Source of the DNA: an uncultured Marvinbryantia sp.
GTDB taxonomy: Bacteria; Bacillota; Clostridia; Lachnospirales; Lachnospiraceae
DNA: 64,000 nucleotides
Reading direction: 5' to 3'
Assembly (NCBI GenBank): GCA_947631355.1
Contig: CANRKY010000001.1
Coordinates: 1,284-65,283, forward strand
Part shown: in pieces, positions 33,198 through 33,352 of the stretch
Layout of the letters: each line of letters begins with the position of its first letter
How positions within the stretch are numbered: position 1 is the stretch's first letter
Translations under genes and position numbers: made by a program
Notes under the pieces: generated by a model
Database searches by the model: none
Told to the model about the DNA's origin: nothing
Seen by the model: the letters and a program-made list of their open reading frames with translations, nothing else

Positions 33198-33307
33198 AAA
33201 AAAACCCGTCCTCTTTCAAAAGGACGAGCAGATTTACAGTCTGTCCCTTTGGGCCGTCCGGCCCTCTTATGAAAATGCCCATCCAGCTTAAGCAAGCCGG
33301 ATGGGCA
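33198..33307 (-). promoter_or_regulatory. tyrS leader: hairpin, tRNA-Tyr-like D-arm/anticodon arm and overlapping intrinsic terminator
   Basis: Minus strand GAGGGCCGGACGGCCCAAAGGGACAGACTGTAAATCTGCTCGTCCTTTTGAAAGAGGACGGGTTTTTTT. Confidence 0.75.
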
Positions 33308-33323
33308 GCGCTTCTTGACTATC

Positions 33324-33352
33324 ATTGTATATTCCGTCCGCTGAAATGTCAA
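33324..33352 (-). promoter_or_regulatory. SigA-type promoter of tyrS
   Basis: TTGACA-17-TACAAT. Confidence 0.85.

Follow-up and report, generated by a model that had tools for sequence, protein, structure and literature searches.

A truncated tRNA-Tyr fused to a T-box terminator in the leader of a B3/4-domain tyrosyl-tRNA synthetase gene, probably a relic of regulatory decay

The DNA analyzed here, referred to as the window, is a stretch of 64,000 nt whose minus strand carries at 33169-31232 a gene, here called tyrS, for a 645-aa protein in which a B3/4 domain (B3_4, residues 64-209) is fused to a complete tyrosyl-tRNA synthetase (TyrRS; TIGR00234, 376 bits), an identification by Pfam and TIGR00234 that agrees with the reading of a first-pass annotation made from the sequence alone. 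Together with its leader, tyrS belongs to an island of ~11.8 kb (33430-21650, minus strand) delimited by synteny with same-genus genomes, from which the island is absent and in which the counterparts of the window's beta-propeller gene (33435-36017) and rpsA-like gene (20472-21620) directly adjoin each other. The other island genes encode an ART/collagen-like repeat protein, a PLP decarboxylase, a 292-aa unknown protein, a B12-radical SAM protein, a carbamoyltransferase and a TPR protein (Pfam, NCBIfam); no integrase was found among the island proteins, and neither border or flanking repeats nor a GC shift were detected. In the genome of the related locus L004 (L105:8054-11669), genes for a decarboxylase (39% identity) and a carbamoyltransferase (40% identity) lie ~2.3 kb downstream of the fused tyrS, so that their association with tyrS may be conserved. 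Elsewhere in the window, Rfam recognized a cobalamin riboswitch (103 bits; 56825-57022, minus strand) and a bacterial large SRP RNA (183 bits; 59856-60117, plus strand).

All leader coordinates given below are those of the window and refer to the minus strand, on which the leader is composed, in 5' to 3' order, of a promoter, a 14-bp hairpin, a 40-nt tRNA-Tyr-like piece, a terminator, a ribosome binding site and the tyrS start codon. The promoter, TTGACA-17-TACAAT (33352-33324), is of the sigma-70 type and matches the consensus at 11 of 12 positions. Downstream of it, a perfect 14-bp hairpin followed by UUUUC was recognized from the sequence and the predicted fold (33307-33276); it has no homolog in any of the relative loci compared and no second copy in its own genome, and candidates for what it represents are an inserted element, a 5' stabilizer or a weak or first terminator. 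The tRNA-Tyr-like piece (33266-33227) runs into the stem-loop CUCGUCCUUU-UGAA-AGAGGACGGG (33228-33205), a stem of 10-11 bp closed by a UGAA loop, with a U7 tract at 33204-33198. With its GC-rich hairpin and directly adjoining 3' U-tract, 33228-33198 is an intrinsic (Rho-independent) terminator, for which a free energy of -24 kcal/mol is predicted when it is folded alone. The ribosome binding site AGGAGG (33181-33176) lies 5' of the tyrS ATG at 33169. As a whole, the 154-nt leader is more structured than shuffled sequence (z = -4.8), mostly on account of the 14-bp hairpin and the terminator. The promoter described by the first-pass annotation was thus found where it had been placed, and all coordinates and sequences given there for the minus strand were correct; the 14-bp hairpin with its UUUUC and an alternative hairpin in the former D-arm (see below) had been overlooked.

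The first reading had also stated that this synthetase leader contains no T-box, and our searches agree. Between 32900 and 33600, Rfam returned no match to the T-box or to tRNA at the gathering threshold or at E<=10, and ARAGORN called no tRNA in the leader or the window. When the leader was compared with the T-box model (RF00230), Stem I with its specifier loop was absent, the whole interval from promoter to terminator being occupied by the 14-bp hairpin and the tRNA stump; likewise absent were the UGGN bulge and the GGUGGUA motif, which in the relatives lies 20-25 nt before the terminator arm. The terminator 5' arm CGUCC[C/U]UUU, which in a T-box is shared with the antiterminator, is present. 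Attenuation through a leader peptide was rejected because the sole open reading frame that spans the leader has its start codon within the -10 box and contains no run of Tyr codons.

Aligned with tRNA-Tyr sequences from the host genus and from the related loci L003, L016 and L077, 33266-33227 proves to be what is left of a tRNA-Tyr(GUA) gene's 5' half: remains of the acceptor, a D-arm with mutations and an anticodon arm that is still intact. Its last 21 nt (GGGACAGACTGTAAATCTGCT, 33247-33227), which correspond to tRNA-Tyr G24-U44, match without a difference the tRNA-Tyr found in related genomes and in the host genus (BLAST E 4.5e-6), and nhmmer aligns the stump with tRNA-Tyr over 34 nt at E 7e-6; judged by these scores, the resemblance on which the first-pass annotation had remarked is greater than chance and reflects derivation from tRNA-Tyr. 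The block includes CAGA-CUGUAAA-UCUG, in which the exact anticodon loop CUGUAAA (33239-33233) displays GUA at 33237-33235, as had been claimed, and which is identical to tRNA-Tyr, that is, a cognate anticodon stem-loop of the kind found in the thrS operator. The D-arm and acceptor part upstream of the block matches tRNA-Tyr more loosely. The stump does not amount to a functional tRNA-Tyr: only positions ~1-44 are present, and the complete cloverleaf, the T-arm and the long variable arm are missing. A search of its own genome revealed no copy of the leader, no tRNA-Tyr gene and no tRNA-Tyr 3' half, only chance matches of 13-19 nt.

The changes in the stump are unevenly distributed. Positions 8-45 of tRNA-Tyr are identical between the host genus and donor-like genera, and against this background the stump has accumulated ~5-7 changes in the 18-nt D-arm versus none in the 21-nt anticodon-arm block (Fisher p 0.002; 0.04 if the changes are conservatively counted as 4 events). 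Such a contrast hints that the block has been under constraint.

The former D-arm, which had been taken for a D-arm mimic, is predicted by both minimum-energy and centroid folds to adopt a different, non-tRNA structure, the hairpin GGGCC-GGAC-GGCCC (33264-33251), which on these folds arose from mutations where the acceptor and D-arm had been. The 4-bp anticodon stem is predicted to be marginal (-1.8 kcal/mol, pairing probability ~0.3). A second, antiterminator-like helix is predicted between AAAGGGAC (33250-33243) and GUCCUUUU (33225-33218), with the anticodon hairpin enclosed within it (33250-33218). This is the alternative stem of the first-pass annotation; it is indeed present and is the fold of lowest predicted energy for the nascent RNA as long as the 3' arm of the terminator has yet to be made. 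About 4 kcal/mol of the predicted stability of this helix state is contributed by the stem part of the conserved block, and its pairing is made perfect by the deletion of a single G from the D-arm relative to tRNA-Tyr, a change that looks adaptive. At equilibrium, the predicted energies (-17.9 kcal/mol for the helix state versus -26.1 kcal/mol for the terminator state) favor the terminator by ~8 kcal/mol.

The origin of this arrangement became apparent from loci that carry the same gene. Fused B3/4-TyrRS genes are common in Lachnospiraceae-labelled genomes and metagenomes, and in L003, L016, L077 and L079-82 the fused tyrS is preceded, according to ARAGORN and Rfam, by a consensus promoter, an intact tRNA-Tyr(GUA) gene, ~30 nt of spacer and a Tyr T-box (modules at L003:2560-3003, L016:2560-3003 and L077:1060-1503). 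The T-boxes of these intact modules score 98-131 bits in Rfam, end ~40 nt before the ATG and contain AAUACA (specifier UAC) and GGUGGUA, as expected for riboswitches that respond to tRNA-Tyr. Apparently, then, the tRNA sensed by the riboswitch is encoded immediately 5' of it and in one transcript with it. The literature that we searched contains no description of a tRNA-Tyr gene upstream of a tyrS T-box, nor of a B3/4-TyrRS fusion.

Compared with these modules, the window sequence departs from tRNA-Tyr after ..TCTGCT and continues as CGTCCTTTTGAAAGAGGACGGG-T7, which is the T-box terminator of the relatives. Both arms of the window terminator (CTCGTCCTTTTGA...AGAGGACGGG-T7) are identical to those of the T-box terminator of L013 and L015 (CTCGTCCTTTTGATCAGAGGACGGG), and the T-box terminators of L002, L016, L075 and L077 are very similar. 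The dinucleotide CT at the junction (33228-33227) is common to the tRNA (..UCUGCU/GGC) and to the terminator arm (..GAACU/CGUCC). With L016, L003 and L077 as references, the junction corresponds to a deletion of 288-290 nt that took away everything from the 3' half of the tRNA through the spacer, Stem I and the specifier to the T-box sequence and its antiterminator. Sequence comparison therefore establishes the leader as a deletion relic of an ancestral tRNA-Tyr gene and Tyr T-box. It also accounts for the observation, made in the first reading, that the terminator stands in place of the tRNA variable arm: the terminator does start exactly there, but it is the old T-box terminator, brought to that position by one deletion, and not an extended variable arm.

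Decay of the same module has recurred independently among the relatives. L007 (L007:2487-2528), whose TyrRS is nearly the same as that of L077, retains promoter and tRNA positions 1-39, followed by spacer and an intact T-box; here ~55 nt were lost internally in a separate event. Full-length, heavily degenerate tRNA-Tyr relics with mutated anticodon loops lie between promoter and T-box in L072/L090 and in L075 (L072:1110-1195; L075:110-215). In L001 (L001:2793-2870), a full-length degenerate relic (nhmmer E 1.7e-6) has ~8 of 18 D-arm positions changed, a broken T-arm and an anticodon stem cut to 3 pairs around an intact loop; no T-box and no adjoining T-box terminator could be detected, and the leader shows no excess of structure over shuffled sequence (z -0.23). 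In the three relics with the least decay, those of the window, L007 and L001, the D-arm carries most of the changes, and a change from GAGTGG to GAATGG is common to the relics of L007 and L001. A T-box was also undetectable (Rfam E<=5) in the leaders of L004, L006, L073 and L078, as it was in that of L001; in L073 the GGTGGTA motif is mutated to AGTAGTA, and in L004 only an A2-helix remnant and a T-box-type terminator are kept. Such repeated losses indicate that the upstream tRNA and the T-box are both dispensable. The promoter, on the other hand, is kept 5' of the tRNA or its relic in every lineage compared, where TTGACATTT...TACAATG or TATAAT stands directly 5' of the tRNA-Tyr gene or relic. 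The promoter at 33352-33324 is thus probably that of the former tRNA-Tyr gene, now driving tyrS, and the 5' stump would have survived because it sits between the sole promoter, which is always kept, and the gene.

The layout of the window leader is not shared by its closest relatives. Its protein and that of L001 form a sister pair (87% amino acid identity, dS ~1.5; tree support 99/95) with the T-box-bearing L005 as sister group (98/94), and DNA homology between window and L001 is confined to the interval from 15 nt before the ATG through the stop codon. Genome contigs, metagenome contigs and a search of 5.8 billion protein clusters yielded no relative above 87% identity; the window protein and the L001 protein are each represented by one contig, and the arrangement was seen in one sequence only in the 5.8-billion-cluster search. 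Conservation of the mimic among orthologous leaders, on which the proposal of the first-pass annotation depended, is accordingly absent: the relic of L001 is a different one, full-length and degenerate, its anticodon stem broken and no T-box terminator adjoining it, while in the other relatives there is either a T-box or nothing.

The host has also lost its native tyrS. None of the 23 same-genus genomes contains the fused gene, and 22 of the 23 encode a TyrRS that is only ~30% identical to the fusion. The genome under study has cleanly lost this genus-type tyrS from the syntenic position (contig C38:1420-1747, compared with L045:1441-3019), where the two flanking genes, both 92-94% identical to their counterparts, lie ~330 bp apart versus ~1.6 kb in the relatives. 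No other TyrRS was found in the genome, a 92%-complete metagenome-assembled genome (MAG) of 212 contigs; as far as an assembly of this completeness shows, the acquired B3/4-TyrRS fusion therefore appears to have displaced the native enzyme. Among 400 same-family genomes only one other fused copy was found. The fused gene is also absent from the 60 relatives of the genome of L001, which points to a mobile tyrS module. As a separate observation, the genomes of L001, L003, L005 and L007 (G061, G064, G067 and G066) combine the fused TyrRS with a second, unfused one and those of L002, L004 and L006 have the fused TyrRS only, so that the fusion behaves as a mobile paralog that is at times the sole enzyme.

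We consider it quite probable that the window leader is a deletion relic with a leaky terminator. The ancestral unit would have comprised promoter, tRNA-Tyr(GUA), ~30 nt, Tyr T-box and B3/4-tyrS. From it, ~290 nt were then deleted internally between points that share the dinucleotide CT, a microhomology; the tRNA 3' half, the spacer and the whole T-box except its terminator were lost, and tRNA position 44 now directly adjoins the terminator 5' arm. tyrS would be transcribed together with the stump from the old tRNA promoter, and the polymerase would meet a constitutive terminator that must be leaky, sensing no ligand; read-through would probably be aided by the fortuitous AAAGGGAC:GUCCUUUU helix, the first to form during transcription. 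Some features fit this explanation less well. The 21-nt block has remained unchanged beside ~5-7 D-arm differences from a sequence that is invariant across genera, the anticodon loop is intact in the relics of L001 and L007 too, and the loss of one G that perfects the antiterminator pairing has an adaptive appearance. An unregulated strong terminator is moreover somewhat surprising in front of the only TyrRS gene found, the native tyrS having been deleted.

The leader can be compared with known systems. With class I transcriptional tyrS T-boxes (RF00230; B. subtilis tyrS type) it has in common the downstream gene family, a terminator homologous to that of orthologous T-box leaders and a terminator/antiterminator logic in which the helix formed first uses GUCCUUUU. 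Unlike these, it has been deprived by deletion of Stem I, specifier, T-box sequence and UGGN bulge and thus cannot read tRNA charging. With tRNA pseudogenes and truncated tRNA genes it shares a tRNA-Tyr 5' half, an inactivated D-arm and the lack of a 3' half, with parallels in L007, L001, L072 and L075. Unlike the usual tRNA pseudogenes, this stump resides inside an mRNA leader, where it would be retained because the downstream gene still needs the tRNA promoter.

A variant of the relic explanation, whose probability is counted within that of the relic explanation as a whole, deserves consideration as a possibility of lesser standing: after the deletion, the AAAGGGAC:GUCCUUUU helix and its enclosed hairpin may have been selected as a constitutive partial antiterminator that senses no ligand. 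Such structural retention is consistent with the predicted minimum-energy fold of the nascent RNA, which is this helix, with the single-G deletion and the ~4 kcal/mol that the stem of the conserved block gives to the helix state, and with the loss of the native tyrS, and it leaves the seven unchanged loop bases unexplained. As the layout is represented by a single sequence, selection on the block and its young age are indistinguishable. The simpler reading of the folding model is that the helix has been selected, or merely tolerated, for enough read-through to express the sole TyrRS.

The proposal of the first-pass annotation, a tRNA-like fold to which free TyrRS binds and so locks in termination, is unlikely, and we found no support for such binding. 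In its present form it would hold that the anticodon arm, left abutting the old T-box terminator by the deletion, was co-opted as a putative B3/4-TyrRS site, with the anticodon-arm mimic and the terminator hairpin (in the role of a variable arm) together favoring termination once bound by free TyrRS; the choice between antiterminator and terminator would thereby be tipped in a negative transcriptional feedback, an event to which we assign a low probability. An exapted relic of this kind is suggested by the exact anticodon loop and stem with none of the 21 block positions changed next to a mutated D-arm, by a terminator that starts at the variable-arm position, and by the early formation of the antiterminator in the nascent RNA, which would open a kinetic window for a factor; some feedback would also be useful, since the gene encodes the genome's sole TyrRS. 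There are, in addition, precedents. The E. coli thrS operator contains an anticodon mimic in its own leader that is bound by its own synthetase. For yeast HisRS, an anticodon mimic that binds its own synthetase is reported (PMC6542539). Like these two and the yeast AspRS mimic, the window has a look-alike of the cognate anticodon stem-loop in the 5' leader of a synthetase gene. The thrS, AspRS and HisRS mimics, however, act on translation or mRNA fate, are conserved and have been demonstrated experimentally, whereas the mimic in the window is a candidate only and, unlike them, lies 5' of a terminator, is a literal gene fragment and is not conserved. The layout itself occurs in one sequence and has not been kept by the sister L001, a single deletion accounts for it fully, and other relatives that have lost the T-box possess no mimic. 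The fused TyrRS of L004, the sole TyrRS of its genome, is encoded behind a terminator-only leader, which indicates that such a leader is viable without a mimic. In the window, furthermore, the D-arm is destroyed, neither a T-arm nor an acceptor is left to fix the inter-arm angle, and the terminator is already the more stable state by a predicted 8 kcal/mol at equilibrium. If the proposal were true, it would describe a protein-sensing attenuator born of a tRNA gene fragment and caught at its origin in a single lineage. Binding of TyrRS by the stump would constitute the first transcription-level autoregulation of a synthetase by a tRNA mimic, no synthetase gene under control of that type being described in the literature that we searched, and would offer a direct view of how such a mimic arises.

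It is more doubtful still that the stump serves another putative tRNA-binding factor, either as a site for a tRNA-maturation nuclease or as a substrate or decoy for the queuosine-inserting transglycosylase. The latter recognizes U33-G34-U35 in a 7-nt loop, and a 7-nt loop containing UGU is indeed intact here on its short stem. RNase P and RNase Z, nevertheless, would find neither an acceptor nor a T-arm here, and there is no conservation.

The first reading had named as its own alternative the scar of an integration into a tRNA-Tyr gene. The leader is a scar, but of a deletion, and an integrated mobile element is a scarcely credible origin. The element does lie ~170 nt inside the border of the ~11.8-kb island. 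In same-genus genomes, however, there is no tRNA at this site, and the tRNA-Tyr of the genus has a different acceptor stem and is located elsewhere. Integrases duplicate tRNA 3' ends; the stump, in contrast, is an outward-facing 5' half joined to a T-box terminator. With no tRNA-Tyr 3' half anywhere in the assembly, no integrase and no shared repeats at the island borders, this origin was rejected. Nor is it any more plausible that the junction is a chimera of the assembly, as the MAG's 212 contigs and the occurrence of the same tRNA sequences in several species might suggest, for the island is flanked on both sides by genus-syntenic genes on one 67-kb contig and the junction completes a terminator rather than falling inside a long shared repeat.

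The find is, then, of an ordinary kind, the decay of regulatory sequence and of a tRNA gene within a mobile tyrS module, and it provides a clear case of such decay: the module repeatedly loses its tRNA and its riboswitch while keeping the tRNA promoter. It also counsels caution against taking tRNA-like pieces of a leader for designed mimics. Two by-products of the comparison may matter more than the leader itself. One is a cognate tRNA gene located immediately 5' of, and apparently co-transcribed with, the T-box that senses that tRNA; the other is the apparent replacement of a native TyrRS by an acquired B3/4-TyrRS fusion whose gene is located behind a terminator with no riboswitch.
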